Assembly: GCA_002448235.1 (NCBI GenBank) | Contig: DIXF01000001.1 | Coordinates: 137,136-201,135, forward strand | Length of the DNA: 64,000 nucleotides | Origin: Syntrophaceae bacterium UBA6087 | GTDB taxonomy: Bacteria > Desulfobacterota > Desulfomonilia > UBA1062 | Reading direction: 5' to 3' | Shown: in pieces, positions 17,595-48,165 of the stretch | Position numbering within the stretch: position 1 is the first letter of the stretch | Layout: each line of letters begins with the position of its first letter | Made by a program: the position numbers and the translations under genes | The notes under the pieces: generated by a model | The model's input: the letters and a program-made list of their open reading frames with translations, nothing else | What the model was told of the DNA's origin: nothing | The model's database searches: none

Positions 17595-18800
17595 CTAAAA
17601 TTTAAGCCCGATCCATCTGGTTTCTTCGCCCTTCATGCCGTCCGGTGAGCATGATGACTTGAAGGCCTCGTAAAGATGATGCGTGGCGATCTCTCTTCCG
17701 CCGAGTCCGAGTATGTAGTTCACGATGGACGGACGGGCGCTGCTGTCTTGCGTGTGGCGGTACAGCGCCGACTTGATATCCGAGGTCAGTGCGCCCTGGT
17801 ACCCGTAGCTCAACGCCTTTTCGAATATGATGACGCCCCTGCAGGAGCTCAGAGCCTGTGCGATGATCTCCGCCGGGAAGGGCCGGTAGAGGTGCACGCT
17901 CATGACGCCGGCCTTTATCCCCTCGCCCCTGAGCATGTCCACCACATCGCGCAGGTGATAGGAGAGCGAGCCCAGGCTCACTGCGACATATTCGGCGTCT
18001 TCGCAGAGATACGGTTCGATGAAGGGAGCGCCGCCCCGTCCGAACACGGACGCGAACCGCTCGTCGATTTTTTTCAGCGCGGGTATGGCATCGAGCATGC
18101 TCTTGTGGAGCAGGTACCTGATCTCCATGTATCCGTGCGCCATATCTCCCCGGATATCCGGCCGGACATCGGGCAGGGTTACGGTGTTGAGGTTTGCAGG
18201 CCTCTTCGGATCGAGGCTGTAGGCCGGGTTGTAGGGAGGGAGGAACCTGTCCGTGAGCGAAGAGTCGGGTACATCGAAGGGCATGTACGTATGGGAGAGG
18301 AGGTATCCGTCATAGCAGACCATCACCGGAACCATGACCTCTTCGGCCAGCAGGAACGCCTTGAGCACGGTATCGATGATCTGCTGGTGGTCGTTCGCAT
18401 AAAGCTGAATCCACCCCGTGTCGCGCTGGGAGATGGAGTCCTGGTGGTCGTTCCAGACCGTCCAGGGGGCTCCGACGCCCCTGTTGACCACGCACATGAC
18501 AAGGGGGAGCCTGGCGCCGGCAGCCCAGTGGATCTGCTCGTGCATGTAGAGCAGCCCGTTGGCGGACGTTGCGGTAAAGGCCCTGGCGCCTGTGGAAGCG
18601 GCTGCTATGCATACGGCCAGCGCGCTGTGCTCGCTCTCAACAGGAATGTACTCCGCATCCATTTCTCCCGACTCGATATACTCCGAGAGCTTTTCCGTGA
18701 GCGGCGTCTGGGGCGTTATGGGGTATGCTGCAATGACTCTGGCCCTGGCAAGCTTTACCCCCAGCGCTGCGGCCACATTTCCGGATTCGATCACTTGCAT
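17595..18800 (-). CDS. 2-oxoacid:ferredoxin oxidoreductase, alpha subunit.
   Basis: 401-aa translation beginning MQVIESGNVAAALGVKLARARVIAAYPITPQT..., typical of PorA/VorA. Its stop overlaps the delta subunit gene. Confidence 0.85.
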   Translation of the reverse strand: MQVIESGNVAAALGVKLARARVIAAYPITPQTPLTEKLSEYIESGEMDAEYIPVESEHSALAVCIAAASTGARAFTATSANGLLYMHEQIHWAAGARLPLVMCVVNRGVGAPWTVWNDHQDSISQRDTGWIQLYANDHQQIIDTVLKAFLLAEEVMVPVMVCYDGYLLSHTYMPFDVPDSSLTDRFLPPYNPAYSLDPKRPANLNTVTLPDVRPDIRGDMAHGYMEIRYLLHKSMLDAIPALKKIDERFASVFGRGGAPFIEPYLCEDAEYVAVSLGSLSYHLRDVVDMLRGEGIKAGVMSVHLYRPFPAEIIAQALSSCRGVIIFEKALSYGYQGALTSDIKSALYRHTQDSSARPSIVNYILGLGGREIATHHLYEAFKSSCSPDGMKGEETRWIGLKF

Positions 18801-19114
18801 GGGTCTTCTTCAGCTCCTTCGAGGAAACTCGATTCATCCACCATGGTGATTGCCTTGGTGGGACATTCCTGGGCGCATATCCCGCAGCCCTTGCAGTATT
18901 CATAATCGATTTTCGGCGGAATCCCCCGGGTGATCACCCCGTCCGGGCAGTAGAGCCAGCAGATGTAGCAGGCCGGGGCGTTCCTCTTTCCGGGCGTGCA
19001 GATCTGCGGGTCGAGAACGGGCCGTGCGATCCTCCACGATCCGGTCTTTCCGGCGTCGCCCGGTCCGGCCTCGCTGAAGGAGATGTCTTTGCAGTAGTTT
19101 TTTTTGTCTTTCAA
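18791..19114 (-). CDS. 2-oxoacid:ferredoxin oxidoreductase, delta subunit (2x[4Fe-4S] ferredoxin).
   Basis: Two Cys clusters, CYICWLYCPDG and CKGCGICAQECP. Length is 107 aa. Confidence 0.8.
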   Translation of the reverse strand: MKDKKNYCKDISFSEAGPGDAGKTGSWRIARPVLDPQICTPGKRNAPACYICWLYCPDGVITRGIPPKIDYEYCKGCGICAQECPTKAITMVDESSFLEGAEEDPCK

Positions 19115-19677
19115 CGGGGGCCTCCGATGATGGTGTTCTCATAGCAGAGCAGGGCTGCACGGGCATTTTCCTTTGGCCTCCTGCCGCTGAATTCTTCTTC
19201 GATGGCACTGGTCAGGCCGTCCATCGCGACAAAGTGCGCGGCTTTCGCGAATGCCCCGATGATGCCGCTGTTGACCACCCCGGCAGGAAGGCCTGCCCTG
19301 ACCGACAGATCGGTCACATCGGCAACGGCAATTTTCCTCCCGTTAAAGGAATAATTTGCCGGTTGACGGGGGGAATTGATGACGATGAGGCCGTCCTTTT
19401 TGAGCCCCGAAGCTACATCGACCTCTTCAAGCAGAAGGTAGTCGAGGACCACCACGATGTCGGGCCTGGTCGTGGGCGAGAGGTCGAATATCTTGTCTTT
19501 CGACACCTTGAGAGAGGTGAAGACAGGAGCTCCCCTTCTCTCGGTGCCGAAGGTCGGGATCATTGCAACGCCGGTATAGCCTGCAGCGAACATCGCCTTT
19601 GCCACTATCTTTGCAGCGGTTATTGCTCCCTGTCCGCCTCTCCCGTGCCACCTTATCTCGATGCATTCTCTTTCCAT
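19111..19677 (-). CDS. 2-oxoacid:ferredoxin oxidoreductase, gamma subunit.
   Basis: [20 protein letters not shown]... is the conserved gamma-subunit N-terminus. The gene is ATGA-coupled to the delta subunit gene. Confidence 0.85.
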   Translation of the reverse strand: MERECIEIRWHGRGGQGAITAAKIVAKAMFAAGYTGVAMIPTFGTERRGAPVFTSLKVSKDKIFDLSPTTRPDIVVVLDYLLLEEVDVASGLKKDGLIVINSPRQPANYSFNGRKIAVADVTDLSVRAGLPAGVVNSGIIGAFAKAAHFVAMDGLTSAIEEEFSGRRPKENARAALLCYENTIIGGPR

Positions 19678-19910
19678 AGCTCACCTACCCGTGATTATCG
19701 GCAGCATACAGGAGGGACTCCCGCAGCATTCGAATCCGGCCGCGTAAAACTATACACTAGTTGCGGTATTTAATCAACGGAGGCGAATCAGGGCAGGGCA
19801 GTACCGGGTAGAACTCTTTGAGGAAGCGCCCGGCCCTGCCAAGGCACGCACCTTGCATAATTATCAGGCATGTTTACAGGGAAGAGGTTTTCACCAGAGG
19901 AGGAGATATC

Positions 19911-20891
19911 ATGATCAGCAGGGAAGCCAGAAGGGTCCGAAGCAAAGAAGGTTTTATCCCGGACGACCTGTCGCAGAACAGGTCGCTGGCGCTTTTCACC
20001 GAGAGCATCGTCTCTCTGCTGTCGAGTCCTTCCCTGAGCAGCGCCATGATCGATCTCGTATCCCTGATGGGGCAGACATTCCCACTGGCCGCGCCCGCGC
20101 TCTACATCAGCATGAATGGGTCCCAGGCACAGGCATATTCCGTGCTCGACCGAAACGGGGTCGGGCCGGGCGATGCCGGGAGGGTATTGGGGCACAACCG
20201 CTTCAACTATATCCCGGTCCCGGTGGGAGGCCATCCTCCGCTCATACAGCGCCGGGTCGATATGCTGCTCGTTGATACTCCTGTCACCAAGGTTGTCCTG
20301 TCGATAAACTCAGGAATCCATGACGGAATATTCCGCGAATGGGTCAAAATCTTGACGCCGGCCGTTTCCAAGCTCATGGACAATGAGGTGCTCCTCAAGA
20401 TGGCCTACCGGGACGGGCTTACGGGCCTGCTCAACTTTCGTGCATTCGAGGAGATGCTCTATGCGGAAGAGGATAGGGCGCGAAGATACCGGACGGCATT
20501 CTCCGTTATGATGGTAGATGTCGACTGGTTCAAGAAAATCAACGACAGCTACGGCCACCAGATAGGCGACGTGGTGCTGAAGTCGCTTTCAGACAGGCTT
20601 ATCCACTGCGTCCGGAAGAGCGACAGCGTATTCAGGTACGGAGGGGAGGAGTTTGCCGTTATACTTCCCCACACAGGCCTTCTCAAAGCCGTTAAGCTGG
20701 CAGAAAGGATCCGGTACATGGTCGAGAAGACGGATTTCATCGCCGGTCTGCATATCACCGTGAGCATCGGGATCAGCGAATATGAAGAGGGTCTGGAGAC
20801 CTGCGACCTGGTCAAGCAGGCCGACAAGGGCCTTTATCTGGCGAAGGAACGCGGGCGGAACCGTGTTGAGATGATGAAAGGCGTTTCATGA
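19911..20891 (+). CDS. Diguanylate cyclase (GGDEF domain) with an N-terminal sensory, GAF-like region.
   Basis: The ATG at 19911 follows the RBS GAGGAGGAG; the listed ORF starts upstream at a TTG. The GGDEF core reads RYGGEEFAVILP, with LTGLLNFRAFEE and DVDWFKKINDSYGHQIGD. Confidence 0.85.
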   Translation: MISREARRVRSKEGFIPDDLSQNRSLALFTESIVSLLSSPSLSSAMIDLVSLMGQTFPLAAPALYISMNGSQAQAYSVLDRNGVGPGDAGRVLGHNRFNYIPVPVGGHPPLIQRRVDMLLVDTPVTKVVLSINSGIHDGIFREWVKILTPAVSKLMDNEVLLKMAYRDGLTGLLNFRAFEEMLYAEEDRARRYRTAFSVMMVDVDWFKKINDSYGHQIGDVVLKSLSDRLIHCVRKSDSVFRYGGEEFAVILPHTGLLKAVKLAERIRYMVEKTDFIAGLHITVSIGISEYEEGLETCDLVKQADKGLYLAKERGRNRVEMMKGVS

Positions 20892-21715
20892 ACATAGACA
20901 GTCTGCTCAACTTGAAATTGGGCATCCATGCCCAGGCGTCCGGAGGGGGCAAAGTCCCGGGAGAGGTGGCAGAAATCCTCGACCAGGATCTGTTTGTCTT
21001 TGTACCGGAATCAGGCCTGGATGTTTCGGAGGGAACGCTCCTGAGGCTCTCGGACGGCCAGGATTCGATCCTTGCCAGGGTCAAGGAGATTACCGGAAAC
21101 GGCATCCTGATGACCATCGAGTGCTATGCGTCTCCCGGAAACGAGCGCCGGCAGGATGTCCGTATCTATGACAGGGTCTACTTCCACGCCAAATTTCTCT
21201 GCCGTTCCGACAAGAAATTCGAGGTCCTCCCCGAGGCAATGGAGAGGATAAAGGGCAACAAGCTCATCATCGAATCTTTTCTGAAAGGGAAATACGGTTA
21301 TGCCGGCTCCTACGAGCCGCCCTCCTCGCGGGAGCCTTCGTTCAACCAGTCGCTCTGGGAGCTGAACCGGAAGGTCGACCTGCTTATCCACATGTACCTG
21401 GCGGAAGACTTCATGACCCTGATGAAAACCTCGCCCAGGGACGTCAATATCAGCGCCTCGGGCATCAGGTTCATTACCAGGGAAAGTTTCCGTCCGGGCG
21501 ATCTCCTGGAGATCAGCCTCATTCTGCCCATGGCGCCGTTGCTCTTCATGAGGCTCGCGGCCGAGGTCATCCGCCTGAAACCCGTCACCTCTAACGAATC
21601 CGAGCGCTATGCGGTAGCGACCAGGTTCCTCCAGGTGGACTCCGAAACGAGGGAAGACATCATCCGCTATCTCTTCAGGCGGCAGCGGGAGTTTCTCAGG
21701 AAGAGGCAGGCCTGA
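20888..21715 (+). CDS. PilZ-domain c-di-GMP receptor with an N-terminal YcgR_N-like region.
   Basis: RxxxR motif (RRQDVR) and D-x-S-x-x-G motif (DVNISASGIRF). The start overlaps the GGDEF gene stop as ATGA. Confidence 0.75.
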   Translation: MNIDSLLNLKLGIHAQASGGGKVPGEVAEILDQDLFVFVPESGLDVSEGTLLRLSDGQDSILARVKEITGNGILMTIECYASPGNERRQDVRIYDRVYFHAKFLCRSDKKFEVLPEAMERIKGNKLIIESFLKGKYGYAGSYEPPSSREPSFNQSLWELNRKVDLLIHMYLAEDFMTLMKTSPRDVNISASGIRFITRESFRPGDLLEISLILPMAPLLFMRLAAEVIRLKPVTSNESERYAVATRFLQVDSETREDIIRYLFRRQREFLRKRQA

Positions 21716-24138: not shown

Positions 24139-25827
24139 ATGAAGGACCCGGCGGGCGCCCTTGCCGAAACCCGGTACGAGCCCGCTCCTGCAGGAATTTG
24201 CCTATTGCCCTTTAAAAAAACTCACAGTATGGTATGCGCCATGGATTTCAGAGGTGCTATGTGTGCGTGGTGCAGGCTGAGTAAAGGACCGGCCGAAGAC
24301 TGCATCCCATGCCCCCGCTTCCGCAAGTGCGAGCTCAAGGAAAACCTTGTGCTCGATTCCGAGATATTTTGCGGGATGTGCAAAAACAGAGACGACGCCG
24401 GGCTTCGCGTGTTCTGCGAGACCAACAGAAAACTCCAGAAAGATTCCGATGAGCCGTTCGACTGTTACCGGTACGATCCCGACATACAGCCCCCGAAAGA
24501 AAGCCAGGCACACGTCGTCACGGTATTTCCGACGCATCGCGGGAAAGTATGCCTCGTGCGCCGGAGCGGGAAGGTCGGAACATACCAAAGACGCTGGTCA
24601 GGGATCAGCGGGTACCTCGAAGGCGATCCGGGAGAGCACTACATGCAGGAACTGCGTGAAGAAACATCGCTGAAGCCGGGAGAATACGTACTCCTGCGGC
24701 GCTCCGAAACCGTGGTGGTTCAGGATGAGGAGCACGGCCGGATCTGGTGCGTGCATCCGTTTCTGTGCGAAGTTCACGACCCCTCCCGAGTTACCCTTGA
24801 CTGGGAGAATACCGAGCTCCGGTGGATAGACCCGGAGGAGATCAAAGAGCTCGACACGGTACCGGGCCTTTGGGAGGTGTACGAGCATGTATCGAGACTT
24901 CCTCTGGAACGCGAGCTCTCGGCCTTCCTGCAGGAACTGAGAGACGACCGCTACAGCGGGGCAAGGCAGCTCGCAGCCCAAGCGCTGGCTTTCCTCGGCC
25001 GGGTTGTCCGGTCATCCAATGCCGCGGGAACCGTAACGCTCCTGGACGATCTTTTTTATGCATGTCATGAAATAAGCCTGGCCCGCCCTTCCATGGGTAT
25101 CATTTCGACCTCGCTCGACCTGGTGATCCGGGACGCGAGGGCGTTCAGTCCTCTGGACATAGCGGAGGCGAGGCCACAGATCGCCTTCCTCGCAGCAAAA
25201 CACCTCAAGGAGATGGAATCCGCTCTGGACAAGGCAATTGAGCATCTCGACGCGATCGTGCCGGAGAGAGCGACCGTCCTGGTTCACTCGTACAGCTCTT
25301 CGCTGATTCATGCCCTGCCATTGCTGAAGAAGAAACGGTGCTCCCTGATCGTGACGGAATCGAGGCCCGGGTTCGAGGGAAGGACGACCGCGCATGTAGC
25401 GGCCGAGACGGGGATCAACGTCAGGCTTATCACCGATGCCTGCGCCGGTCACGAGCTTCTCTCCGCGGACGTTGTCCTCATGGGAACGGACAGCATTGAG
25501 CCCGACGGCTCGGTGATCAACAAGGCAGGGTCGTCCTTGATAGCCATGGCGGCGCATGCCTCGGGCGTCAAGGTATACTTTATCGGCGAGATCAGAAAAT
25601 TGAGCTTCAGGCAGGGAGGCGCTGCGCTTGAAGAATACGATCCGAGCGAGGTATGGGAGAACCCCCCGCACGGAGTCGGGGTGGGGAACCTCTATTTCGA
25701 CCGGACCGGCCCTGAGTTTATTAGCGGAATAATCCTCGAAAGGGGCGTCGTTGAACCGGGACGGATAAGGGAGATTGCCGAGTCTCTTTTTTCTCTGGAT
25801 GCCCACGGCGACCGCAAGACCTGTTGA
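24139..25827 (+). CDS. Fusion protein with three parts: a Cys-rich N-terminal region with several CxxC pairs, a NUDIX hydrolase domain, and a C-terminal eIF-2B/MtnA/ribose-1,5-bisphosphate-isomerase-family domain.
   Basis: Cys pairs CAWC, CIPC and CGMC. A Nudix-box-like sequence, GYLEGDPGEHYMQELREETSLKPGE. A C-terminal IF-2B family pattern, VLVHSYSSS...IVTESRPGFEGR...GINVRLITDAC...ADVVLMGTDSIEPDGSVINKAGS...AHASGVKVY. The start codon is uncertain; an alternative ATG lies at 24229. Confidence 0.6.
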   Translation: MKDPAGALAETRYEPAPAGICLLPFKKTHSMVCAMDFRGAMCAWCRLSKGPAEDCIPCPRFRKCELKENLVLDSEIFCGMCKNRDDAGLRVFCETNRKLQKDSDEPFDCYRYDPDIQPPKESQAHVVTVFPTHRGKVCLVRRSGKVGTYQRRWSGISGYLEGDPGEHYMQELREETSLKPGEYVLLRRSETVVVQDEEHGRIWCVHPFLCEVHDPSRVTLDWENTELRWIDPEEIKELDTVPGLWEVYEHVSRLPLERELSAFLQELRDDRYSGARQLAAQALAFLGRVVRSSNAAGTVTLLDDLFYACHEISLARPSMGIISTSLDLVIRDARAFSPLDIAEARPQIAFLAAKHLKEMESALDKAIEHLDAIVPERATVLVHSYSSSLIHALPLLKKKRCSLIVTESRPGFEGRTTAHVAAETGINVRLITDACAGHELLSADVVLMGTDSIEPDGSVINKAGSSLIAMAAHASGVKVYFIGEIRKLSFRQGGAALEEYDPSEVWENPPHGVGVGNLYFDRTGPEFISGIILERGVVEPGRIREIAESLFSLDAHGDRKTC

Positions 25828-25956
25828 ATGTTCTTCAGCGTAAGCCAGCTGCCGTGCATTCACGAAGAACGGATAAGGACAGTATACGGTAACAGCGGGT
25901 GCAGACATACGGAAGATTTCCCGTATCGATCATGATCAGTACCGGAAACAGGAGGT

Positions 25957-27444
25957 ATGATGAATATTTACCAATGGATAAAGGATCATGCGAAAGAAAG
26001 GCCGGAGAAGGTAGCCGTACGTTTCAGGGACATCAGCATTACGTACGCCGAGCTGTTTTCCTTGACGGGAAAGCTGGGGACAGCCCTGAGGGACTCGGGG
26101 ATAGGACGGGGCGACCACGTGACGATCGTACTCCCCAATTCGCCGGAATTCATTATCTCATACATGGCTGTCGTGAGCGTAGGGGGAATCGTGGTGCCGG
26201 TAAATCCTTCGTTCACCTCCCGGGAGCTTTCGCACATCCTGAAGGATTCCGACTCGAAGGCGGTTGTCATCGAAGAAAGCAATTCCGCCACATATGACGA
26301 TATCCGCGAACTGTGCCCGCTGGGGACGGTGATAACCACGGGCGAGGGAGGGAACTTCTCCCAGTGGACAAGCGGCAGCGACCGGGGCATCATCGAGGAA
26401 ATGGATAAGGATGACGTTGCATCCATGATCTACTCTTCGGGACTCACCGGGTATCCCATGGGGGCCATGCTCACCCACGGCAACCTGGATCATAATTCCG
26501 ACCTGATGAGGCGGTGCGCCGATGCCGACGATACGGACACCACACTCACCATTATCCCGTGCTTCCACTCGTTCAGCGCGAGCGTCAACATGCTTGCCAT
26601 GCTGCGGTACGGCGGGACGGTCTACATGGTCAAGAATCTGGACTTCAAAGAGCTCAACCATGTGCTCACCAATGGCGGGATCACCTGCATATGTGCCGTT
26701 CCGACGCTGTTTTACGGGCTCCTGCTCCATCCGGATGTCCAGAGCGTAGACTACACCAGGATGAAGATCCTGATAGCGGGCGGGTCCGCGCTCTCCATGG
26801 AGATCTATACCGGGTTCAAAGAGCGTTTCGGCGTCGATCTCAGGCAAGGCTACGGCCTTACCGAGGCGTCACCCGTGTGCGCGTACAACAGTCCCCACGT
26901 GAAGCTGAAGCCCGATTCCATCGGTCCCGCCGTGCCGGATGTTCAGGCAAGGATCGTCGATGAGCAGGGAAGGGTGCTTACGCCCGGAGAAAAGGGCGAA
27001 ATCCTGTTCAAGGGCCCCAACGTCATGAAGGGATATTACAAGAGAAAAGAAGAGACGCGGGAGATCATCAAAGACGGCTGGCTCTATACCGGCGACCTGG
27101 GATATATGGACGAAGAAGGCTATATCTATATCACCGGGTACAAAAAGGATATGATCATCACCTCGGGCTTCAACGTATACTGCAAGGAGGTGGAGAATGT
27201 CCTGAATTCGATCCCCGGGGTTCGGGATTCCGCCATCACGGGTATCCCCGATCTCATGAGGGGAGCCATCATCAAGGCATACGTGGTGGCGGACGGCTCC
27301 GACATCACCGAAAACGAAGTGAAGCGCCAGGCCCGCAGACTTCTGGCCTCCTATAAGACGCCGCGCAAGGTGGAGTTCGTACCCCAGATCTTCAGGGACA
27401 ACAACGGCAAGGCCCTTATCGAGGAGATCGAGCAGAAAAAATGA
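25957..27444 (+). CDS. AMP-forming acyl-CoA synthetase/ligase (adenylate-forming enzyme).
   Basis: AMP-binding motifs YSSGLTGYPMGAMLTHGN, GYGLTEASPV and YTGDLGYMDEEGYIYITGYKKDMI. Length is 495 aa. Confidence 0.85.
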   Translation: MMNIYQWIKDHAKERPEKVAVRFRDISITYAELFSLTGKLGTALRDSGIGRGDHVTIVLPNSPEFIISYMAVVSVGGIVVPVNPSFTSRELSHILKDSDSKAVVIEESNSATYDDIRELCPLGTVITTGEGGNFSQWTSGSDRGIIEEMDKDDVASMIYSSGLTGYPMGAMLTHGNLDHNSDLMRRCADADDTDTTLTIIPCFHSFSASVNMLAMLRYGGTVYMVKNLDFKELNHVLTNGGITCICAVPTLFYGLLLHPDVQSVDYTRMKILIAGGSALSMEIYTGFKERFGVDLRQGYGLTEASPVCAYNSPHVKLKPDSIGPAVPDVQARIVDEQGRVLTPGEKGEILFKGPNVMKGYYKRKEETREIIKDGWLYTGDLGYMDEEGYIYITGYKKDMIITSGFNVYCKEVENVLNSIPGVRDSAITGIPDLMRGAIIKAYVVADGSDITENEVKRQARRLLASYKTPRKVEFVPQIFRDNNGKALIEEIEQKK

Positions 27445-28343
27445 CGGGGTGCGTGCTGTGTCCGAGGCGCTGTCCGGCCGACAGATCAAGGGCTGAAGGC
27501 GCCTGCGGAGTCGGTGAGGACCTGCTCGTCGGCTCCATCGTCATCCACCGGGGCGAGGAGCCGCCTCTGGTAACGGGTGCGGGCTCCGGGGCGGTGTTCT
27601 TTTCCGGGTGCCCGCTCAAGTGCGCCTACTGCCAGAATAGCCGGATAAGCCACCAGGCCTTTGGAAAAACTGTTACCGAGTCAGAGCTTGCCTCTTTCAT
27701 GCTCCTTCTCCAGGATTGCGGGTGCTCCAACATCAACCTGGTGAGCCCGACCCACTTCGCCCCCGGGATCATTCGTTCCCTGACCCTTGCCCGCGAGCAG
27801 GGCCTCGACCTTCCCGTCATGCTCAATTCGAGCGGGTATGAGAGCATTGAATCTCTCGAAAGATGGGAGGGCCATGCGGACCTTTTCCTCATGGACCTGA
27901 AATACGGCGACAACGAAACAGGGAAGCTCCTGAGCCGCGTAGCCGATTACTGGGACCGGGCGCGCGAGGCCGTCGCATACCTCTGGGAAAAAGGGGGTGC
28001 GTTATGCGTCGATGAAAACGGCCGGGCCTTGTCCGGACTGATCGTACGGCACCTCGTGCTTCCGGGCATGCGCTCGAATCCTTTTGCCGTGCTTGAATTC
28101 CTGGCCGGACTCTCCCTGGATATCCCCGTCAGCATCATGTCCCAGTACAACCCTTCTTTCTACTCGGGGACTTTGGCCGAGATGAGCCGGACGGTGTCAC
28201 CCGGGGAATACGAAGTGGTTCTGGAGAAGGCCGTCGATTTCGGATTCGCCACGATATATGCCCAGGAAATGGACTCTATTGAAAACTATACGCCCGACTT
28301 TGCATCCGATACACCCTTTGGGGACGGCTTGAAAATATTTTGA
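27441..28343 (+). CDS. Radical SAM enzyme, PflA-like (activase) subfamily.
   Basis: Cx3Cx2C motif GCPLKCAYCQN. There is an additional N-terminal CVLCPRRC...ACGV motif, as seen in activase/AmmeMemoRadiSam-type radical SAM proteins. The start overlaps the ligase stop as ATGA. Confidence 0.75.
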   Translation: MTGCVLCPRRCPADRSRAEGACGVGEDLLVGSIVIHRGEEPPLVTGAGSGAVFFSGCPLKCAYCQNSRISHQAFGKTVTESELASFMLLLQDCGCSNINLVSPTHFAPGIIRSLTLAREQGLDLPVMLNSSGYESIESLERWEGHADLFLMDLKYGDNETGKLLSRVADYWDRAREAVAYLWEKGGALCVDENGRALSGLIVRHLVLPGMRSNPFAVLEFLAGLSLDIPVSIMSQYNPSFYSGTLAEMSRTVSPGEYEVVLEKAVDFGFATIYAQEMDSIENYTPDFASDTPFGDGLKIF

Positions 28344-28401: not shown

Positions 28402-30150
28402 GTGCCGATAGTGATAGATGGTATGCTATCAATTGAAGACGATTACGAACGCAGGTACAACGAAGAGACCGGGGATCTCTTATATCAGCGCGTGCTGGCT
28501 GTACTCCTGGTGGGCATTATCCTCATCCCGTTCTTCAGCGTCCTGGATTATGTGGTGGTCCGTGAGCACTTCGGCCTCTTCTTTTTCTACCGCATTACCT
28601 GTTCCGGATCGCTCCTGGCGCTTCTGCTTGTTTACTATTCAAGGTACGGCAAAGACTCTGCGTTTGCCCTGGTGACCGTCGCCTATATCATTGCGGCCTT
28701 CACCATCGCCATGATGTGCGTGAAAATGGGCGGGTACTCGTCATTTTACTACGTCGGACTCATCATGGTCCTCGTCACGATCGTCATCCTGCCCTTAAAC
28801 GCTCCGCAGGCATTCCTTTCCGGGCTCATGCTCTACCTGATCTATGCCCTGCCCATCATCTTGCTCAACAACCCCAGTCCGGACAGCCTGAAAGTATTTT
28901 TCAGCAACAGTTTCTTTTTTGCCTTTTTCATCGTGATAACCACGCTTCAGGCATATGAAGAGACAAAGATGCGCAAGAGGGAATGCAGGCTCAAAACAGA
29001 GATGGACGGTCTTGCAGAGCGTCTCTCCTATTACGCACACAACCTCGAGGCAGAGGTGGAGAAGCGCCTTATCGAGCTTGAGGAATCCGAGCTCCGCTAC
29101 CGGGAGCTCTATGAGAATATCATCGATATCGTCATCCTCGTGGACCGGAACTCAAAGATACTCATGGCGAATCCCAGGTTTTATGACACGATCGGCATTC
29201 CATCGGAGCAGAAGCTCGATTTCAGCTTTATGAAGCTCGTGAAGGGGCCGGATACCCTCCTCGTGGAGAGGATGTTCGACCGTCTGCCCACCGAGCAGAC
29301 GGTAAAGGATTTCCAGTTCAGGGTCGAAAACCGCCAGGGAAAGATCTTTGAGGTCGAATGCAATGCCAAGTGCATCTACAAAGAGGGCGAACTCGTCGGC
29401 TTCCAGATGGTAATAAGGGATATCACCGTACGCAAGAAGCTGGAAAACGACCTGCTGGAATCTTATAAAAAGGTCCAGAGCGCACGGAACGCGACGATCC
29501 TCGGCTTAGCGAAGCTGGCTGAATACCGTGACGCGGATACGGGCGCCCATCTGGAGCGCATACGGGAATACTCGAGGGTCATCGCCCAGGACCTGGCCAA
29601 GAGAGCGAAATTCGCCGAGTACATCACCCAGGATTATATTGATGATATCTACAATTCGTCCATTCTCCACGATATCGGAAAGGTGGGCATCCCGGACTCG
29701 ATCCTGCTGAAGCCGAGCCGTCTGACCAAGGACGAGTTCGAGGTGGTCAAGCGCCACTCATCCCTGGGCGGAGACGCCCTCAGGGCCGTGGAAACGAAGA
29801 TCGAAGGCCAGTCCTTCCTGAGCCTGGGAAAAGAGATCGCCTATTACCACCACGAGAAATGGGACGGCACCGGATATCCCAAAGGGCTCAAGGGTGAGCA
29901 GATCCCCTTGTCTGCAAGGATAGTCGCCCTTGCGGACGTCTATGATGCCCTTACCTCAAAGCGGGTCTACAAGGAGGCCTTTTCTCATGAAAAGGCCCTG
30001 GAGATCATTCTGGAGGACAGGGGCAAGCATTTCGATCCGGAAATCGTGGACGCATTCATGGACCACGAGGCGGACTTCCGCAGCATCCGGGAGGAAATGT
30101 TCAGAGACCACGCCGCAAATCAGCAGAAGCAGGCAACCACACCGTCATAA
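28402..30150 (+). CDS. Membrane-anchored PAS/HD-GYP c-di-GMP phosphodiesterase.
   Basis: About six N-terminal transmembrane segments, a coiled coil, and a PAS region. The HD-GYP signatures are ILHDIGKVGIPD and HHEKWDGTGYP. Confidence 0.85.
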   Translation: MPIVIDGMLSIEDDYERRYNEETGDLLYQRVLAVLLVGIILIPFFSVLDYVVVREHFGLFFFYRITCSGSLLALLLVYYSRYGKDSAFALVTVAYIIAAFTIAMMCVKMGGYSSFYYVGLIMVLVTIVILPLNAPQAFLSGLMLYLIYALPIILLNNPSPDSLKVFFSNSFFFAFFIVITTLQAYEETKMRKRECRLKTEMDGLAERLSYYAHNLEAEVEKRLIELEESELRYRELYENIIDIVILVDRNSKILMANPRFYDTIGIPSEQKLDFSFMKLVKGPDTLLVERMFDRLPTEQTVKDFQFRVENRQGKIFEVECNAKCIYKEGELVGFQMVIRDITVRKKLENDLLESYKKVQSARNATILGLAKLAEYRDADTGAHLERIREYSRVIAQDLAKRAKFAEYITQDYIDDIYNSSILHDIGKVGIPDSILLKPSRLTKDEFEVVKRHSSLGGDALRAVETKIEGQSFLSLGKEIAYYHHEKWDGTGYPKGLKGEQIPLSARIVALADVYDALTSKRVYKEAFSHEKALEIILEDRGKHFDPEIVDAFMDHEADFRSIREEMFRDHAANQQKQATTPS

Positions 30151-30544: not shown

Positions 30545-31126
30545 TTACTGCTGCTGGGGCTGAACTCCAGGTGCGGCGGCGGTTGCCGGGGCCGGTTCCA
30601 ATGCTGCAGGCTCCGAGACCTGTCTTTTGCGGTTGCTCATGAGCCTCTTGGTTATTGCTGCTGCTTTCTGGGCGTCCATGTAGGAGAGGATGCCGCCTGC
30701 TATCTCGCCTTTCATGTTGAGGAAAACCTCTGTAGCGACCTCCAGGTCTATCTGGTTCATGAGATTGGCAGCCGCGTTCGGCTTCATGGAAGAATAGATT
30801 TTGACGAGATGCTTGATGCGGCCGTCGCTTAACTGTTTGTATGAGACGAGATCGATCTTGATGGATGCTTCGAGCTCCGAGAGACGCCTGAGCTTTTCAT
30901 CGATCCGTTTTTCGAGTTGATTAAGTTCGGCCTGCCTGATTCTTAAAAGGTCTTCCCGCTGCCTTAAGGAATCCCATGCTGCCCTGGTATCCTGCGCTGC
31001 CTCTTTTCTGGCAGGGGCTTGAGTCTGTTTCTCCTCGGCTGCGGAAAGGGGATTGATGGAAAAATATATTCCGAGAAAGAAAAGATTCACGATTAATGCG
31101 ATAAAAAGGAGCTTTTTTCCTTTCAT
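30545..31126 (-). CDS. Flagellar MotE/FlbB-like protein (MgtE_N-type domain).
   Basis: Signal/anchor, a coiled coil, and a C-terminal segment AANLMNQIDLEVATEVFLNMKGEIAGGILSYMDAQKAAAITKRL. The gene is overlap-coupled to fliJ. Confidence 0.5.
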   Translation of the reverse strand: MKGKKLLFIALIVNLFFLGIYFSINPLSAAEEKQTQAPARKEAAQDTRAAWDSLRQREDLLRIRQAELNQLEKRIDEKLRRLSELEASIKIDLVSYKQLSDGRIKHLVKIYSSMKPNAAANLMNQIDLEVATEVFLNMKGEIAGGILSYMDAQKAAAITKRLMSNRKRQVSEPAALEPAPATAAAPGVQPQQQ

Positions 31127-31563
31127 GATACTCTCCCATGCCGCTGTATTGCGATCTCATTGATGAAATTCATTTCCTGCCTTGCCTCTTCAGCCGAATA
31201 CCGCTCTTTATCGATTTCCTTCAGGCGCTCGATTGCTTTTGCTTCTTTTTTCTTCTTGAGCAGTTCCTGACGTTTTGTTTCAAGCATTTTCCGTGCCTTG
31301 GCGATCTGTTTTTCCACCTGGGTGATCCCGGATTCCAGATAAAATATATAATTGTTATACGAGATGATCTCCTGCGCCGTGATTCCCGAATCCATTTTCT
31401 CGGTGAGGTTCTGCCAGACAGAAGCTCTCCGGGAAAGAATGGCGGTTTTCAGGTTTTCCAGGTCCATGAGCACTTTCTGAGCCTTGGAGAATTCCTGCAG
31501 TGCCAGGTCTTCTCGAATCTTCCTGACTCGCGAAAGGGTCTCGAAACGGAAACGGAATCCCAT
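31123..31563 (-). CDS. fliJ: Flagellar export chaperone FliJ.
   Basis: 146-aa coiled-coil protein located directly downstream of fliI. Confidence 0.7.
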   Translation of the reverse strand: MGFRFRFETLSRVRKIREDLALQEFSKAQKVLMDLENLKTAILSRRASVWQNLTEKMDSGITAQEIISYNNYIFYLESGITQVEKQIAKARKMLETKRQELLKKKKEAKAIERLKEIDKERYSAEEARQEMNFINEIAIQRHGRVS

Positions 31564-31572
31564 GGTTATCCC

Positions 31573-32892
31573 CTACTTCGCTGCGGGCAGGATCTTTTTC
31601 ATCATGCCCAGAGCGTTTTCTATGCTCACCTTTGCATCGATATCCTGCTTCAGAAAGTCGTTTATGGCGTCGATATGTTTGATGGCGGTGTCTATCTGGG
31701 GGTTGTTCCCCGAGACATAGGCGCCGATGTTGATGAGATCGCGCGCCTCTTCATACACCGCCTTGTATTCGAGGATCTTTCGGGCCATGTTCATATGGTC
31801 CTTGCTCACGATATCGTTCATCACCCTGCTCACGCTTCTGAGGACATCCACCGCCGGGTAATGATTCCTCGCTGCAAGATCACGGGAAAGCACGATGTGG
31901 CCGTCAACGATCGAACGGACGCTGTCCGCAACCGGTTCGTTCATGTCGTCGCCTTCGACGAGGACGGTATAGAGGCCCGTGATGCTTCCCTGGGAAGCGG
32001 CATTCCCGGCCCGCTCCAGGAGCTTGGGAAGTCTGGCGAAACAGGAAGGTGTGTACCCTTTGGTTGTGGGAGGCTCGCCCACAGCGAGGCCGATTTCCCT
32101 CATAGACATGGCAAACCGGGTCACGGAATCCATCATGAGGAGCACGTCGAGCCCCTTATCCCTGAAGTATTCCGCAATGGCGGTAGCGAGGTATGCGCCC
32201 CGGATGCGGATGAGCGCAGGCTGGTCGGATACGGCCGCAACGACCACCGAGCGCTTCAGGCCTTCTTCTCCCAGGTCCCTTTCGATGAACTCCTTTACCT
32301 CTCTGCCGCGCTCGCCGATGAGCGCGATCACGTTTACATCGGCCTTGGTATGGCGGGCCATCATGCCCATGAGGACGCTCTTTCCAACGCCGGAGCCCGC
32401 CATGATCGCCATGCGCTGTCCCTTGCCGATGGTCAGAATGCCGTTGACCGCCGAGATCCCGAGGTCCAGCGGTTCGGTGATGCGTTTCTTTTTCAATGGG
32501 TTCATGGGATGGCCGTACAGGGGCGTTTCTTCCCCGAGGAGAAGCATTCCATGACCGTCCAGGGGGTTGCCCATGCCGTCTATCACCCTGCCGAGGAGCT
32601 CACGGCCGACCTTGACGGTCGGGTGGGATTTCCTCGCGATGATGGTGCTGCCCGGGCCGATGCCGCTTAGATCCCCGAGCGGCATGAGGAGGACCCGTTT
32701 GTCCCTGAATCCGACGACCTCCGCCATAATGGATGAGTTCATTTGCTTGGAGTATATCTCGCACATGCCGCCCATGGAGCTGCCCGGTCCGTGGCCTTCC
32801 ACCACCAGGCCCACGATGTTCGTGACCTTGCCGCGCACCTGGACGGGGTCGGTATCTTTGAGAATAGCGGCATATTTTGCGAGGCTAGTCAT
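31573..32892 (-). CDS. fliI: Flagellum-specific ATPase FliI.
   Basis: Walker A motif MAGSGVGKSVLMGMMAR. The Walker B and F1-like fold sequence reads LLMMDSVTRFAMSMREIGL. Confidence 0.95.
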   Translation of the reverse strand: MTSLAKYAAILKDTDPVQVRGKVTNIVGLVVEGHGPGSSMGGMCEIYSKQMNSSIMAEVVGFRDKRVLLMPLGDLSGIGPGSTIIARKSHPTVKVGRELLGRVIDGMGNPLDGHGMLLLGEETPLYGHPMNPLKKKRITEPLDLGISAVNGILTIGKGQRMAIMAGSGVGKSVLMGMMARHTKADVNVIALIGERGREVKEFIERDLGEEGLKRSVVVAAVSDQPALIRIRGAYLATAIAEYFRDKGLDVLLMMDSVTRFAMSMREIGLAVGEPPTTKGYTPSCFARLPKLLERAGNAASQGSITGLYTVLVEGDDMNEPVADSVRSIVDGHIVLSRDLAARNHYPAVDVLRSVSRVMNDIVSKDHMNMARKILEYKAVYEEARDLINIGAYVSGNNPQIDTAIKHIDAINDFLKQDIDAKVSIENALGMMKKILPAAK

Positions 32893-33556
32893 GATCGAGA
32901 ATCACTTCCTTCATATGTTCGATCTCCGACCGGACGGTTGCATCGATATCTCCGAACTCGGTCTCAATGATGACCCCGCCGCGTTCTATGGAGCTGTCGT
33001 CAACGACATGGACGGCGTTCTTTCCGGTGAGCTTCTTGGAAAGAATGGTTTCGATATCCCGGATATATTCGAAATCCGAAGGGTGGAGGCGAATGCGGAT
33101 CTCTTCCGTTTCGGTAAGGTGACTGGTCGCCGCGCGCACCGTATCCAGGATGATGTCGGGAGACAGGTGTATCTGGCGGTGTATGACTTTTTCTGCAATC
33201 AGGAATATTATCTCCAGGATCTGTTCATGATGCTTTTCGATTATGGACGATCTAAGCCCGGACAACTCTTCGATGGTGTTTTTCAGGGTATCGAACAGGG
33301 GTTCGATCTGTTTTATGGCCATCTTGCGGCCTTCTTCCTGGCCTTTGAGTATCCCCTCTTTGTAGGCCTCCATCTCGATGGATTCTTTCATCGCCCGTGC
33401 ATTCCTGATGATGTCATCGGCGTTTAGCGATGCCTCTTCCTTTTTCCCAGGCTTTGTCTTGGACTCCATCTCCTTGATGGTATAGGAGGTCACGGAAGAA
33501 TGCTTCTTGTCTCCTTTGAGTATCCTAGACGAGGACATCCTCACCACCCTTTCCAC
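32885..33556 (-). CDS. fliH: Flagellar assembly protein FliH.
   Basis: 223-aa protein between fliG and fliI, with the FliH C-terminal pattern GGVIIETEFGDIDATV. Confidence 0.75.
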   Translation of the reverse strand: MERVVRMSSSRILKGDKKHSSVTSYTIKEMESKTKPGKKEEASLNADDIIRNARAMKESIEMEAYKEGILKGQEEGRKMAIKQIEPLFDTLKNTIEELSGLRSSIIEKHHEQILEIIFLIAEKVIHRQIHLSPDIILDTVRAATSHLTETEEIRIRLHPSDFEYIRDIETILSKKLTGKNAVHVVDDSSIERGGVIIETEFGDIDATVRSEIEHMKEVILDHD

Positions 33557-34541
33557 CGATGACGATTTTGCCTCCCGCCTCGAGCTTTCTCACCACGCGG
33601 ACGATGGACTGCTGCGCGCTCTCTACATCGGAAAGCTTGACCGGTCCCATGGCTTCCATGTCGTCCAGGAGCATCTCGGAGGCTCGCGAGGACATGTTTT
33701 TCAGGATAAGGCTCTTCAGATTTTCGCTTGCCGTCTTCAGTGCAAGGGCGAGTTCCTCGTTCGTTATCTCCTTGAGGATGGTCTGGATGCCGCGGCTGTC
33801 GATGCCGACGATGTCTTCGAACACGAACATCTTCTGGCGGATGCCCTCGGCAAGGTCTGCATCCATTTCTTCGAGGAACGAGAAGATATTGTTCTCCGTA
33901 TTGTGGTCCATCTGGTTCATGATCTCGGCAACGGTCTCGACGCCGCCGAGCTTCTTGCTATCGGTGGAGCCCATGGCCTCGATCTCCTTGCGCAGGACCT
34001 GGTCGAGGTCTTCGATGACGCCTGCGGGCACCATGCCCAGGTTGGCCATCCGGAAGATGATCTCGGGCTGGAGCTTTTCGGGCAGTTCCTTGATGATCTG
34101 GGCCGCCTTGGCATAGTCGAGATGGGCAAGCACCAGGGCCACGGTCTGCGGATGCTCACCTTTGAGATAATCCACGAGGATCAGCGGGTCCACCCCTTTC
34201 AGCGATGAAAAGGCCGTGGTATCGGTAGCCATGGAAATGGATTCCAGGATCGGTTTTGCCTTATCCGCACCCAGGGCCGAGACAAGGGCGTCTTTGAGAT
34301 AGTTCATACCCTTGCCGGTTACTCCGCTGACCTGGGAGCTCAATGTCGCATATTCGTCCATGACGGTCTGCACAACATCCACGGGGATGGTAGCGTCTTC
34401 GAGGCTTGCCAGCCGTTTCCCCAGCAACTTGATCTCGTACTCCGTCAAACCTTTGAACACGTTGCGGGTAAATTCGTCGCCCATGGCCATGAGGAAGATG
34501 GCCGCCTTCTGGGGGCCGTCGATTTTCTTCAACTTCATCAT
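33525..34541 (-). CDS. fliG: Flagellar motor switch protein FliG.
   Basis: N-terminal GPQKAAIFLMAMGDE; 338 aa. The start overlaps the fliF stop. Confidence 0.9.
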   Translation of the reverse strand: MMKLKKIDGPQKAAIFLMAMGDEFTRNVFKGLTEYEIKLLGKRLASLEDATIPVDVVQTVMDEYATLSSQVSGVTGKGMNYLKDALVSALGADKAKPILESISMATDTTAFSSLKGVDPLILVDYLKGEHPQTVALVLAHLDYAKAAQIIKELPEKLQPEIIFRMANLGMVPAGVIEDLDQVLRKEIEAMGSTDSKKLGGVETVAEIMNQMDHNTENNIFSFLEEMDADLAEGIRQKMFVFEDIVGIDSRGIQTILKEITNEELALALKTASENLKSLILKNMSSRASEMLLDDMEAMGPVKLSDVESAQQSIVRVVRKLEAGGKIVIGGKGGEDVLV

Positions 34542-36157
34542 CAGACGTTCTCCTGCAACCAGGATTTCACAACCGCGGTGGCAGTGTTCATATCATCCTT
34601 GCTGGACTTTTCGATCACCTTGCGCTTGCCCTGAACCATATGCTTCAATTCCTCGCTTCTCGTGAGGGCCTCGATCTGGGGCAGCTCCTCGCCCGTTATT
34701 TCTGGCAGATCCTCTGATGAGGGCAGGGATCTTCTCTTGTCCGCGCCCCGTTCGATGACCTTGAAAGATTTTACGAGCCACCGCATGAGAGGACGCACCA
34801 CGAACAAAAGGATAAGCAGCGTGGTTACGAGAAAGACGGCCGGCTTTATGAGCGAAGCCAGGAGCTCGTTCTTTTTCGCCTTATCCGCCAGGGCGGCCAT
34901 CTCGGGTCCTTCCTGTATAAAGGGCATGCAGGAGATGGAGAACGTATCCTCGCGGTCGGCGCTGAAGCCCACGGTCTGCTTCACCGCATCTTCGATGCGT
35001 TTGAGCTCGTCCGCAGTCCTTGTGGTGAATGCGTTGTTCCCCTTCGCATCGGTCTTGTAGGTGCCGTCAACAACAACGGATACACTTAAGCGGGTGACGT
35101 TTCCCGGCGATTTGACCCGTTCGGTCTGGTTCCGGGCGATCTCATAGTTGCGGATGACATTTGACCGGCCTGCCGCTGCGTTGTCAGAGAAGGAGCCCGG
35201 TCCCCCCCTGCCCGTGGGCAGGTTTGACTGGGTCCCCGCGATGCCGCCGCTGACGGCATCGTCGCCGGTATAGGCGTTCTTCAGCTCTTCGCTCCTCACC
35301 ACATGGATCTCGGGGTCATAATTGTCTTCGACGCTCTTGACCATGTCCATGTCGATGTCGGCGCTTACCTTCACCACCGCGGTGGCAGGCCCCAGGATCT
35401 TTTCCAGGAGGTCCTGGGCGCGGCCCTGGAGGGTATTTTCGATGGTATGCTTGACATCGAGGTAGTTGTTGGCAAGGGATATGGATGCGGCATCCTTTTT
35501 GCCTTCATAGAGCACCTTGCCCCGGATATCCACGATGCTGATATTCTCGGGATCGAGGCCCCGTACGCTCTTTGCCACCAGGTACACGATTCCCTGCACC
35601 TGACCCTGGGGGATGGTGAGCCCCTGCTTCGGCTTCACGACGATGGAGGCCTTTGCGGGCTTTTCGTCCTCGATAAAGACGCTCTCTTTGGGAAGCGCGA
35701 TATGGACCCTGGCGTAATCCACTTCCTCCAGGGCCATGATGGTATTGGCCAGCTCGTTCTGGAGGGCGCGCTGATAGTTGATCTTCTGGACGAACTCGGA
35801 TGTGGAGAATCCCGTATCGTCAAACAACGCAAACCCTTCACCCGTGCCGCCCTTGGGCAGGCCTTTGGAAGCCAGGTCCAGCCGGGTCTCGTACACGCTC
35901 TTTTCCGGGATCATGACCGCTGTTCCCGCCTTGGTCAGCTTGTAGGGGACGCGGTTTTCCTTCAGGTGCTGGACGATCATCGATGCATCCGACTCGGCAA
36001 GGTTGGTGAACAGATACTGGTACTTGGGTTCGAACGCCCACATCAGTGACACGATGATGACGGCTGCCGCCAGACCGAACATCCCGAAAACGGTGAGTTT
36101 CTGGCCGGTGCTCGTACGGGAGAACCATGCCTTTAAGTTGGAGAGAATGTCGTTCAT
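34541..36157 (-). CDS. fliF: Flagellar M-ring protein FliF.
   Basis: 538-aa protein with two transmembrane segments and the conserved FliF periplasmic region. Confidence 0.9.
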   Translation of the reverse strand: MNDILSNLKAWFSRTSTGQKLTVFGMFGLAAAVIIVSLMWAFEPKYQYLFTNLAESDASMIVQHLKENRVPYKLTKAGTAVMIPEKSVYETRLDLASKGLPKGGTGEGFALFDDTGFSTSEFVQKINYQRALQNELANTIMALEEVDYARVHIALPKESVFIEDEKPAKASIVVKPKQGLTIPQGQVQGIVYLVAKSVRGLDPENISIVDIRGKVLYEGKKDAASISLANNYLDVKHTIENTLQGRAQDLLEKILGPATAVVKVSADIDMDMVKSVEDNYDPEIHVVRSEELKNAYTGDDAVSGGIAGTQSNLPTGRGGPGSFSDNAAAGRSNVIRNYEIARNQTERVKSPGNVTRLSVSVVVDGTYKTDAKGNNAFTTRTADELKRIEDAVKQTVGFSADREDTFSISCMPFIQEGPEMAALADKAKKNELLASLIKPAVFLVTTLLILLFVVRPLMRWLVKSFKVIERGADKRRSLPSSEDLPEITGEELPQIEALTRSEELKHMVQGKRKVIEKSSKDDMNTATAVVKSWLQENV

Positions 36158-36161
36158 ATGC

Positions 36162-36452
36162 CTATCTCAGTTGTGTAAGCTGGTTGTAGCCTTCAATGAG
36201 CTTGTTGGCCGTCGTGACCAGGAGGCGGAGGTTGATGTCGGCCTTCTGCATGGCGATCATGGTCTCGTGTATGTTTCCGCTCTCTCCCCTGGCAAGATCC
36301 AGCATCGATTGTTCGGCGTCCTTGGCCTGCTTGTTCGTGGTTTCGACCGCCTGCTTCAATGCATCGACAAAGCTTTCCCTCGGCGATTTCGTCTGACCGC
36401 GTTCGCCCTGGTCAATAGTCAAGCGTGGAAAATCCGACAGTTCTATACGCAT
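36162..36452 (-). CDS. fliE: Flagellar hook-basal body protein FliE.
   Basis: 96-aa protein with the FliE C-terminal sequence MIAMQKADINLRLLVTTANKLIEGYNQL. Confidence 0.8.
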   Translation of the reverse strand: MRIELSDFPRLTIDQGERGQTKSPRESFVDALKQAVETTNKQAKDAEQSMLDLARGESGNIHETMIAMQKADINLRLLVTTANKLIEGYNQLTQLR

Positions 36453-47998: not shown

Positions 47999-48165
47999 AG
48001 AGCCCTGTTTTTATATACCAGCACCCGGGGGCAGTCAAGGAACAATCAGGTTATCCGTCAGCTGCCGAAGAGCGGTACAAAAAAAAGAATTATGGTTAAA
48101 AAGGGACCAGACGTCTGCGGTAAAATTTTGACACCGCCGCAGCCATGCGGTATAAGGCGCGCATA

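Follow-up and report, generated by a model that had tools for sequence, protein, structure and literature searches.

The window analysed in this study is a 64,000-nucleotide (nt) stretch of contig DIXF01000001.1 from Syntrophaceae bacterium UBA6087 (assembly GCA_002448235.1), in which a gene for an adenylate-forming ligase of the ANL superfamily overlaps the gene for a radical S-adenosylmethionine (SAM) protein that follows it. The explanation that we place first, and hold tentatively, is a real lineage-specific operon in which the radical SAM member carries out the activase-like chemistry of its whole family independently of the ligase, and the main partner of the ligase is a cysteine-rich (Cys-rich) and NUDIX part encoded just upstream. 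Two facts stand opposed in this system: the pair is kept together within its lineage, which speaks for functional linkage, whereas the radical SAM family occurs without the ligase elsewhere and the module itself can occur without the radical SAM gene.

The coupled gene pair

Both open reading frames (ORFs) and their ATGA junction are present as described in an earlier note on this DNA, which had been made from the sequence alone and had proposed that an overlap-coupled ligase and radical SAM enzyme act in one pathway (coordinates in Table 1). The junction reads ...aaaaaATGAcgggg, with the ligase stop codon TGA (27442-27444) sharing bases with the ATG of the radical SAM gene (27441-27443). An AGGAGG sequence lies 5' of the ligase at 25950-25955 and public gene calls give a ligase of 494 residues, which together suggest that its true start is the second ATG, at 25960. 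The two genes are real rather than chance ORFs, because identical proteins for the pair occur on five public contigs and thousands of homologue clusters fall under the E-value limits for each protein: at least 5154 for the radical SAM protein (one search, clusters at 90% identity, E-value of 1e-10 or better) and 7570 for the ligase, with 8000 candidates scored per search. Between the two genes no terminator signal rose above chance; promoter and terminator counts did not exceed those in shuffled sequence and were uninformative.

A conserved module in one lineage

Gene neighbourhoods were scanned with the radical SAM protein as the anchor, using one genome per GTDB species and keeping the best 80 of 577 confirmed loci. 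These split sharply into a close group (L001-L008), with 57-72% identity to the radical SAM protein, and a distant group (L009-L080), with 38-46%. The close group consists of metagenome-assembled genomes labelled Desulfomonilia, Deltaproteobacteria, Syntrophaceae or Thermodesulfobacteriota, and in all eight the radical SAM gene directly follows the ligase gene, its start overlapping the ligase stop by 4 nt. A metagenome scan anchored on the ligase used peptide patterns that were too generic: two of its 80 loci (L092 and L093) belong to the ligase orthogroup, defined by at least 55% identity and followed by a gap down to 40% or less, and the rest encode ANL proteins of at most 40% identity.

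Altogether, 18 module-bearing loci were available, of which 16 are intact, one lacks the radical SAM gene and one has a truncated copy. By tblastn over the clade loci, the invariant gene order is Cys-rich unit, variable insert, ligase and radical SAM gene, the Cys-rich unit being found upstream of the ligase in 17/18. The insert is NUDIX with or without an IF-2B-like domain in the window, L001, L002, L004, L008, L085, L092 and L172, and DUF47/PhoU_div in L003, L007, L086, L088 and L175; L090 holds both (NUDIX/IF2B and DUF47), L006 and L083 neither. NUDIX is thus present in the first of these sets and in L090, and it is absent from L003, L005, L006, L007, L083, L086, L088 and L175. A gene for a MASE8-PAS-HD_5 protein follows the radical SAM gene (in L090, the ligase) in 12 of the 18 loci, which makes it a frequent but not obligatory companion. 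The 4-nt overlap between ligase and radical SAM gene was verified in 12 clade loci, while in L088 the overlap is 1 nt and in L083 and L085 the two genes are 4 nt apart; L172 shows stop/start coupling throughout, from the Cys-rich/NUDIX/IF-2B-like ORF to the ligase and from the ligase to the radical SAM gene.

Identities among the intact loci reach down to 56% for the radical SAM protein and 60% for the ligase, and the outer flanks are wholly unlike those of the window in L004/L008/L092, L083, L085, L086/L088 and L175, with the pair kept across at least five different flanking contexts. Retention of the block despite at least five rearrangements speaks for a real operon. The conservation of the neighbourhood in related genomes, which the earlier note had named as one test of its proposal, is therefore borne out by the 16 loci with an intact pair, and the conserved block includes the NUDIX/IF-2B gene. 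The ligase orthogroup and the Cys-rich protein are restricted to this one lineage.

The two incomplete loci differ from each other. L090 (GCA_942491525.1) has the window's synteny minus the radical SAM gene, in the order GGDEF, PilZ, PBP1B, Cys-rich, NUDIX/IF2B, DUF47 and ligase (6001-7613), then 125 nt, PAS/HD and fli genes. Its ligase is basal in a rough neighbour-joining tree, which fits a ligase module that was there first and received the radical SAM gene at a later time. In L093 (2675-5446), AMMECR1 is encoded directly upstream of the ligase orthologue (64% identity), and what is left of the radical SAM gene is its first 12 codons, 'METCGLCPRSCN', followed by a stop and AT-rich sequence; this remnant could be due to a deletion, an insertion or an assembly artefact.

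Classification and fold of the radical SAM protein

The radical SAM protein begins with MTGC4VLC7PRRC11PADRSRAEGAC22 and hence carries the N-terminal Cys motif that the earlier note had pointed out. These four cysteines are presumed to bind a second metal or cluster, the identity of the metal being likewise a presumption. Further along, C57-x3-C61-x2-C64 aligns with the CX3CX2C region of pyruvate formate-lyase activating enzyme (PFL-AE, the product of pflA). Both motifs are invariant in 20 close homologues (alignment A1) and in 66-67 of 67 distant ones.

An AlphaFold model (20 homologues) reached a predicted local distance difference test (pLDDT) value of 87, with low confidence, about 50, over the N-terminal Cys region. 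The top Foldseek matches of this model are E. coli PFL-AE (8fo0 and 3c8f; TM score 0.71-0.75, 17-19% identity), followed by lipoyl synthase, SuiB and viperin, and in a profile search of PDB sequences PFL-AE was the only match (5e-06). The protein resembles PflA (3c8f, 3cb8, 8fo0) in its partial TIM-barrel radical SAM fold, in its N-proximal CX3CX2C motif after a Gly-rich loop and in its small single-domain size. It differs from PflA in the extra N-terminal C-x2-C-P-x2-C...C motif and in about 55 more residues.

Scores of hidden Markov models (HMMs) separate it from PflA, NrdG and the AmmeMemoRadiSam enzyme, the three classes that the earlier note had considered. The NCBIfam scores were 31.1 bits for PFLA (TIGR02493; cut-off 231.75), 32.3 bits for NrdG2 (cut-off 131.15; NrdG models TIGR02495/02491), 26.1 bits for PFLE_PFLC (TIGR02494; cut-off 174.35) and 9.7 bits with an E-value of 0.34 for AmmeMemoRadiSam (TIGR04337; cut-off 220). 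No NCBIfam family reaches its cut-off for this protein, and the same holds for the 20 close homologues; the best TIGR04337 E-value among 20 clade members, 3e-07, is also well under the cut-off. The radical SAM protein is PFL-AE-like in fold and stands outside all characterised activase families.

The protein also differs from the activases in its surroundings, as no glycyl-radical enzyme partner was seen in any locus. Neither a PFL-like nor a Gly_radical domain was found in ten further ORFs of the window (at least 450 residues) or in the flanking genes, and no large neighbour recurs beside the radical SAM gene in the 80 loci. The AmmeMemoRadiSam enzyme (TIGR04337) is likewise a PflA-like radical SAM protein, and it has a Cys-rich stretch at its N-terminus. 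A tblastn search with AMMECR1 as the only query from that system gave E-values of 0.26 or worse in the window and nothing in L001-L008 or L081-L089; unlike in AmmeMemoRadiSam systems, the sole AMMECR1 seen, in L093, adjoins a ligase with a truncated radical SAM gene. The archaeosine enzyme RaSEA was another lead, which we dropped: no RaSEA-named NCBIfam match was listed at an E-value of 1 or less and there was no ArcS-like neighbour, in a comparison by name only, the RaSEA papers giving no family identifier.

The radical SAM family in other phyla

The 72 loci outside the clade come from Clostridia, Atopobiaceae/Collinsella, Bacteroidales and one Desulfovibrio; as a whole, the family extends over Clostridia, Coriobacteriia, Bacteroidales and Thermodesulfobacteriota. 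Their homology to the window protein is full-length (residues 1-290), and they have the N-terminal four-Cys motif, the CX3CX2C motif and the shared invariant residues. Many clusters of this family bear the JGI name 'putative pyruvate formate lyase activating enzyme', and we take the family to be COG1313/PflX; a literature search with COG1313/PflX and related identifiers, and with AmmeMemoRadiSam, yielded nothing relevant to it.

About 40 residues are invariant across phyla in 67 full-length non-clade homologues of 38-46% identity. They include C4, C7, P8, C11, R15, G20, C22, H36, E39, E40, G48-S-G50, C57, C61, C64, Q65, N66, N129, D152, K154, R203, Q235, Y257 and Q275. Because of these shared invariants, members from different phyla almost certainly have one conserved chemistry in common. 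Within the clade, the radical SAM proteins show specific invariant changes, W38 to G and A95 to C, together with G156, N158, W171, P214 and G243.

Outside the clade, an ANL ligase was found near the radical SAM gene in none of the 72 loci (flanks, within about 6 kb). No neighbour recurs there either, the largest neighbour cluster in an all-against-all clustering of 822 ORFs covering 7/72 loci; immediate neighbours include a sensor histidine kinase, NAPRTase, an MraY-like GT4 protein, NlpC/P60, ThrRS, a YgiQ-type radical SAM protein and UDP-galactopyranose mutase (Glf). The earlier note had treated the missing glycyl-radical or AmmeMemoRadiSam partner as an anomaly. The absence itself stands for the ORFs scanned and for the AMMECR1 search, but the lone state of the gene in 72/72 other loci means that it is normal for the family. 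The overlap fares similarly as a sign of a shared pathway, since in 12 non-clade loci the start of the radical SAM gene overlaps the stop of an unrelated upstream gene by exactly 4 nt. The ATGA overlap thus appears to be a habit of the radical SAM gene and by itself says little about function.

As a side observation, cell-envelope genes often adjoin the radical SAM gene in L009-L080 (MraY-like GT4 in seven loci, NlpC/P60 with peptidoglycan-binding domains, and UDP-galactopyranose mutase), and PBP1B is a cell-envelope neighbour within the clade. One of 78 generic ligase loci, L165, contains a generic ANL ligase (6001-7491, 31% identity) with a protein of the radical SAM family (1188-2036, 38%) about 4 kb upstream, a co-occurrence that is probably a coincidence.

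An atypical ANL ligase

The ligase is a full-length member of its superfamily, with Pfam scores above the gathering score for both AMP-binding (PF00501, 2.9e-88, 296.7 bits) and AMP-binding_C (PF13193, 2.1e-15, 57.8 bits). Its best PDB matches are 8wev/8weu (a feruloyl/fatty-acyl-CoA synthetase), MatB (4fuq) and 4-coumarate-CoA ligases. With these acyl-CoA synthetases, and with NF004837/PRK06187, it shares the domain composition and the motifs A5 (GYGxTE) and A7 (TGD) and, in the window, the A10 Lys (NNGK), which is Arg in two orthologues, L002 and L005. It departs from them at two further motifs. The P-loop reads YSSGLTGYPMG, without Lys or Arg in the window protein and in most orthologues (alignment A3), against TSGSTGRPKG in 8wev and TSGTTGRSKG in MatB. 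At the A8 motif, GYKKD replaces (D/G)RxKD, with Tyr in 19 of 20 orthogroup loci and Phe in one, whereas the aligned references, DRLKDM in 8wev and GRGKDL in MatB, both have Arg. Outgroup ligases of at most 40% identity have Arg at A8 in all three cases and a P-loop ending in PKG (L096 and L098) or PLG (L094).

The earlier note had allowed that the ligase might prove a generic FadD. This is not the case, because the protein scores under every NCBIfam cut-off, including that of its best match NF004837 (412.8 bits; cut-off 476) and that of FadD itself (NF006523; 316.9 bits, cut-off 884), and because its P-loop and A8 motif are non-canonical.

Two paralogues within the orthogroup occur without the radical SAM gene and without the Cys-rich protein. 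One (L091; A8 GYKK, P-loop PLG) lies among genes for DUF169, alpha/beta hydrolases and a 4-OT tautomerase, and the other (L174; A8 GYKK, P-loop PMG) among genes for LigB, Pirin, HpaB and an acyltransferase. Ligases of this kind thus function without the radical SAM enzyme, and the aromatic-catabolism-like contexts of both paralogues give a weak hint that the substrates may be aryl-type acids.

The upstream Cys-rich, NUDIX and IF-2B-like ORF

The ORF upstream of the ligase (24139/24241..25827) is a three-part fusion of a Cys-rich, a NUDIX and an IF-2B-like domain, and its true start is probably M35 (MDFRG..., at 24241), which matches one public gene call of 528 residues. The NUDIX-IF-2B fusion had been recognised in the earlier note, which overlooked the N-terminal domain with its eight cysteines. 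In most relatives the Cys-rich unit is a separate gene of 83-100 residues, homologous to residues ~35-115 of the window ORF. The eight cysteines, arranged as CxxC-x9-CxxC and then CxxC-x11-C-x15-C, are invariant or nearly so (alignments A2 and A4). The domain matched no Pfam family, including no zinc-ribbon family, and a mediocre model (pLDDT 68) gave no PDB match in a fold search. It is rare, a search of 5.8 billion proteins having given 35 clusters and another, of 1.84 billion, 14 representatives, and it is fused only to NUDIX(+IF-2B). The domain is undescribed and restricted to this lineage, and its cysteines would presumably form two tetra-Cys metal sites. NudC-type proteins likewise have a zinc-ribbon Cys-rich module ahead of NUDIX. 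In L088 the Cys-rich gene (5327-5591) is split by a frameshift and may be a pseudogene or reflect a sequencing error.

The IF-2B-like domain shares its fold with ribose-1,5-bisphosphate (R15P) isomerase and MtnA but differs from them at the catalytic position. Its HSYSS aligns with the wild-type THCHS of Pyrococcus horikoshii R15P isomerase, with Ser in place of the catalytic Cys; the best PDB match, an R15P isomerase (1e-25), is a variant reading THSHS. HSYSSS is also present in the orthologues of L001, L004 and L008, and with TIGR00511 the domain reaches 100 bits, far short of the cut-off of 314. The Ser at the catalytic position and the absence of the domain from about half of the modules argue against an essential isomerase step, and the domain may be ligand-binding rather than catalytic. 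On the same two grounds we rejected, as the main explanation, a 5-deoxyribose-1-phosphate isomerase that clears 5'-deoxyadenosine. A role of the NUDIX domain as a CoA pyrophosphatase was set aside as well, no convincing NuCoA-type motif being visible by eye.

Proposed mechanism and alternative explanations

In the explanation that we favour, whose chemical steps we infer, an 8-Cys protein or domain, NUDIX with or without the IF-2B-like domain and/or DUF47, the atypical ANL ligase, the PFL-AE-like radical SAM protein and often a PAS-HD-GYP protein would form a co-transcribed operon confined to an uncultured, Desulfomonilia-labelled lineage of Thermodesulfobacteriota. The radical SAM protein is this lineage's orthologue of a large, uncharacterised family whose genes stand alone in other phyla. 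Its CX3CX2C motif would hold a [4Fe-4S] cluster that cleaves SAM to the 5'-deoxyadenosyl radical, the four N-terminal cysteines would hold a second metal or cluster, and the radical would take hydrogen from a ligase-independent substrate common to many anaerobes. From the activase-like fold and the Gly-rich loop, this substrate would probably be a protein or else some other molecule that is ubiquitous in cells. The ligase would adenylate a carboxylate, possibly an aryl-type acid, and would act chiefly together with the module's Cys-rich/NUDIX part. The ATGA junction would then provide co-expression and stoichiometric coupling, and not necessarily substrate hand-over.

Several points weigh against this explanation. 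Genes that stay adjacent although their flanks have been rearranged repeatedly bear the classical mark of functional linkage, and the clade-specific changes in the radical SAM proteins could fit an adaptation to a lineage-specific partner or substrate. The genomes of L090 and L093 might carry the radical SAM gene elsewhere, or these loci might be assembly artefacts. The attribute ligase-independent, moreover, is drawn from gene distribution and not from biochemistry.

Some of these points favour a pathway like that of the earlier note, which is the strongest of the alternatives and which we nevertheless consider rather unlikely. Here ligase and radical SAM enzyme would catalyse consecutive steps, the ligase adenylating or thioesterifying a carboxylate and a neofunctionalised radical SAM enzyme acting on the activated acid; the Cys-rich protein would be an electron donor or scaffold, and NUDIX, the IF-2B-like domain and DUF47 would be accessory. 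Adjacency in 16/18 loci, with the 4-nt overlap in at least 12 and at least five flank contexts, agrees with it, as do the clade-specific invariant substitutions, the three-way coupling in L172 and the conserved non-canonical P-loop and A8 motif of the ligase, which suggest a specialised role. Against it stand the radical SAM family itself, with about 40 invariants and no ligase in 72/72 other loci, the two loci without an intact radical SAM gene, the basal position of L090, which fits late insertion, and the nested paralogues L091 and L174, which work elsewhere without either partner. An adenylate-then-radical pathway is less likely than co-expression without substrate hand-over.

A bolder proposal, that the trio of 8-Cys protein, 'PMG' ANL ligase and PFL-AE-like radical SAM protein is a new radical-SAM-dependent system whose physiological substrate is the ligase-activated acid, free or tethered to the Cys-rich metalloprotein, seems to us improbable. 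If true, it would give a first lead to the function of a very large orphan family of radical SAM proteins that occurs throughout anaerobes. The superfamilies involved are already known, the radical SAM family only as an orphan; as far as the literature shows, no description exists of the operon, of the 8-Cys domain or of the remodelled motifs in the ligase. This lineage is the only sampled place where the radical SAM family has stable partners, gene context elsewhere being almost always uninformative. If the linkage is functional, it is the only genomic clue to the family's substrate, and a demonstration that the radical SAM enzyme acts on the product of the ligase would de-orphan the family; if it is only co-expression, the module is an ordinary lineage-specific operon of uncharacterised enzymes.

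A protein target within the operon is very unlikely, whether the radical SAM enzyme acts as an activase or maturase that installs a radical or modification on the Cys-rich protein or the ligase, or, in a variant that we weigh jointly with it, the radical SAM enzyme modifies a group that the ligase has first tethered, by acylation, to the Cys-rich protein. The best fold match is itself a protein-directed activase, the activase-type Gly-rich loop is present, and the small Cys-rich protein that co-occurs with the enzyme has no other known role. The Cys-rich protein is, however, absent outside the lineage while the radical SAM family is widespread, and L090 has it without the radical SAM gene. Its eight cysteines fit two tetra-Cys metal sites and leave no spare conserved thiol or Gly, and its domain is fused to NUDIX only, neither the ligase nor the radical SAM protein being a fusion partner.

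Least probable of all is a conventional activase of a glycyl-radical enzyme encoded elsewhere, placed beside the ligase incidentally: the fold and all weak NCBIfam similarities point to activases of glycyl-radical enzymes or NrdD, but the scores are 5-20 times under every activase cut-off, no glycyl-radical enzyme adjoins the gene in more than 80 loci or appears among the large ORFs scanned in the window, and the N-terminal four-Cys motif with its about 55 extra residues sets the protein apart from PflA.

Flanking genes and other features of the window

The features of the module and of the gene that follows it are listed in Table 1.

Table 1. Positions of the module's genes, domains and motifs, and of the downstream gene, in the window.
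Feature	Position	Strand	Remarks
Cys-rich ~85-aa domain (MDFRGAMCAWC...FDCYRY)	24241..24498	+	Fused N-terminally to the NUDIX-IF-2B ORF
NUDIX hydrolase domain	24499..24903	+	Pfam PF00293, 2e-09; optional in the module
IF-2B-like domain	24904..25827	+	Pfam PF01008, 2.2e-40; optional; related to ribose-1,5-bisphosphate isomerase
ANL-superfamily adenylate-forming ligase	25957..27444	+	495 aa; Pfam AMP-binding and AMP-binding_C
Atypical ligase P-loop (A3 motif) YSSGLTGYPMGA	26431..26466	+	Canonical TSGTTGxPKG; Lys to Met, Thr to Leu
Atypical ligase A8/hinge motif ITGYKKDM	27130..27153	+	Canonical (D/G)RxKD; Arg to Tyr
ATGA stop/start overlap of ligase and radical SAM gene	27441..27444	+	Read from the junction sequence
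Radical SAM gene	27441..28343	+	300 aa; Pfam Radical_SAM PF04055, 1.4e-09
N-terminal four-Cys motif C4-x2-C7-P-x2-C11-x2-D-R-x4-G-x-C22	27450..27506	+	Presumed auxiliary metal or Fe-S site
Radical SAM cluster motif C57-P-L-K-C61-A-Y-C64	27609..27632	+	Preceded by the Gly-rich loop GAGSGAVFFSG
MASE8-PAS-HD_5 (HD-GYP-type) protein	28402..30150	+	Pfam PAS and HD_5; MASE8 from precomputed matches

A set of cyclic di-GMP genes brackets the module: a GGDEF cyclase, a PilZ protein and then PBP1B (19818-21715) on one side, and the MASE8-PAS-HD-GYP-type phosphodiesterase (28402-30150) on the other. This arrangement is syntenic in several relatives. Further out, subunits of a 2-oxoacid:ferredoxin oxidoreductase are encoded upstream on the reverse strand (17595-19677), and a flagellar export and basal-body cluster (FliJ, FliI, FliH, FliG, FliF, FliE and rod proteins) lies downstream, also on the reverse strand (30545-37000); both are syntenic in close relatives. 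PADLOC gave no match for any module protein, and a role in anti-phage defence was rejected on that basis. No Rfam element was found near the module in the window or in six relatives, the only Rfam match being a distant thiamine pyrophosphate (TPP) riboswitch (RF00059) at 47905-48002 on the reverse strand, with 67.8 bits against a gathering score of 54.3.

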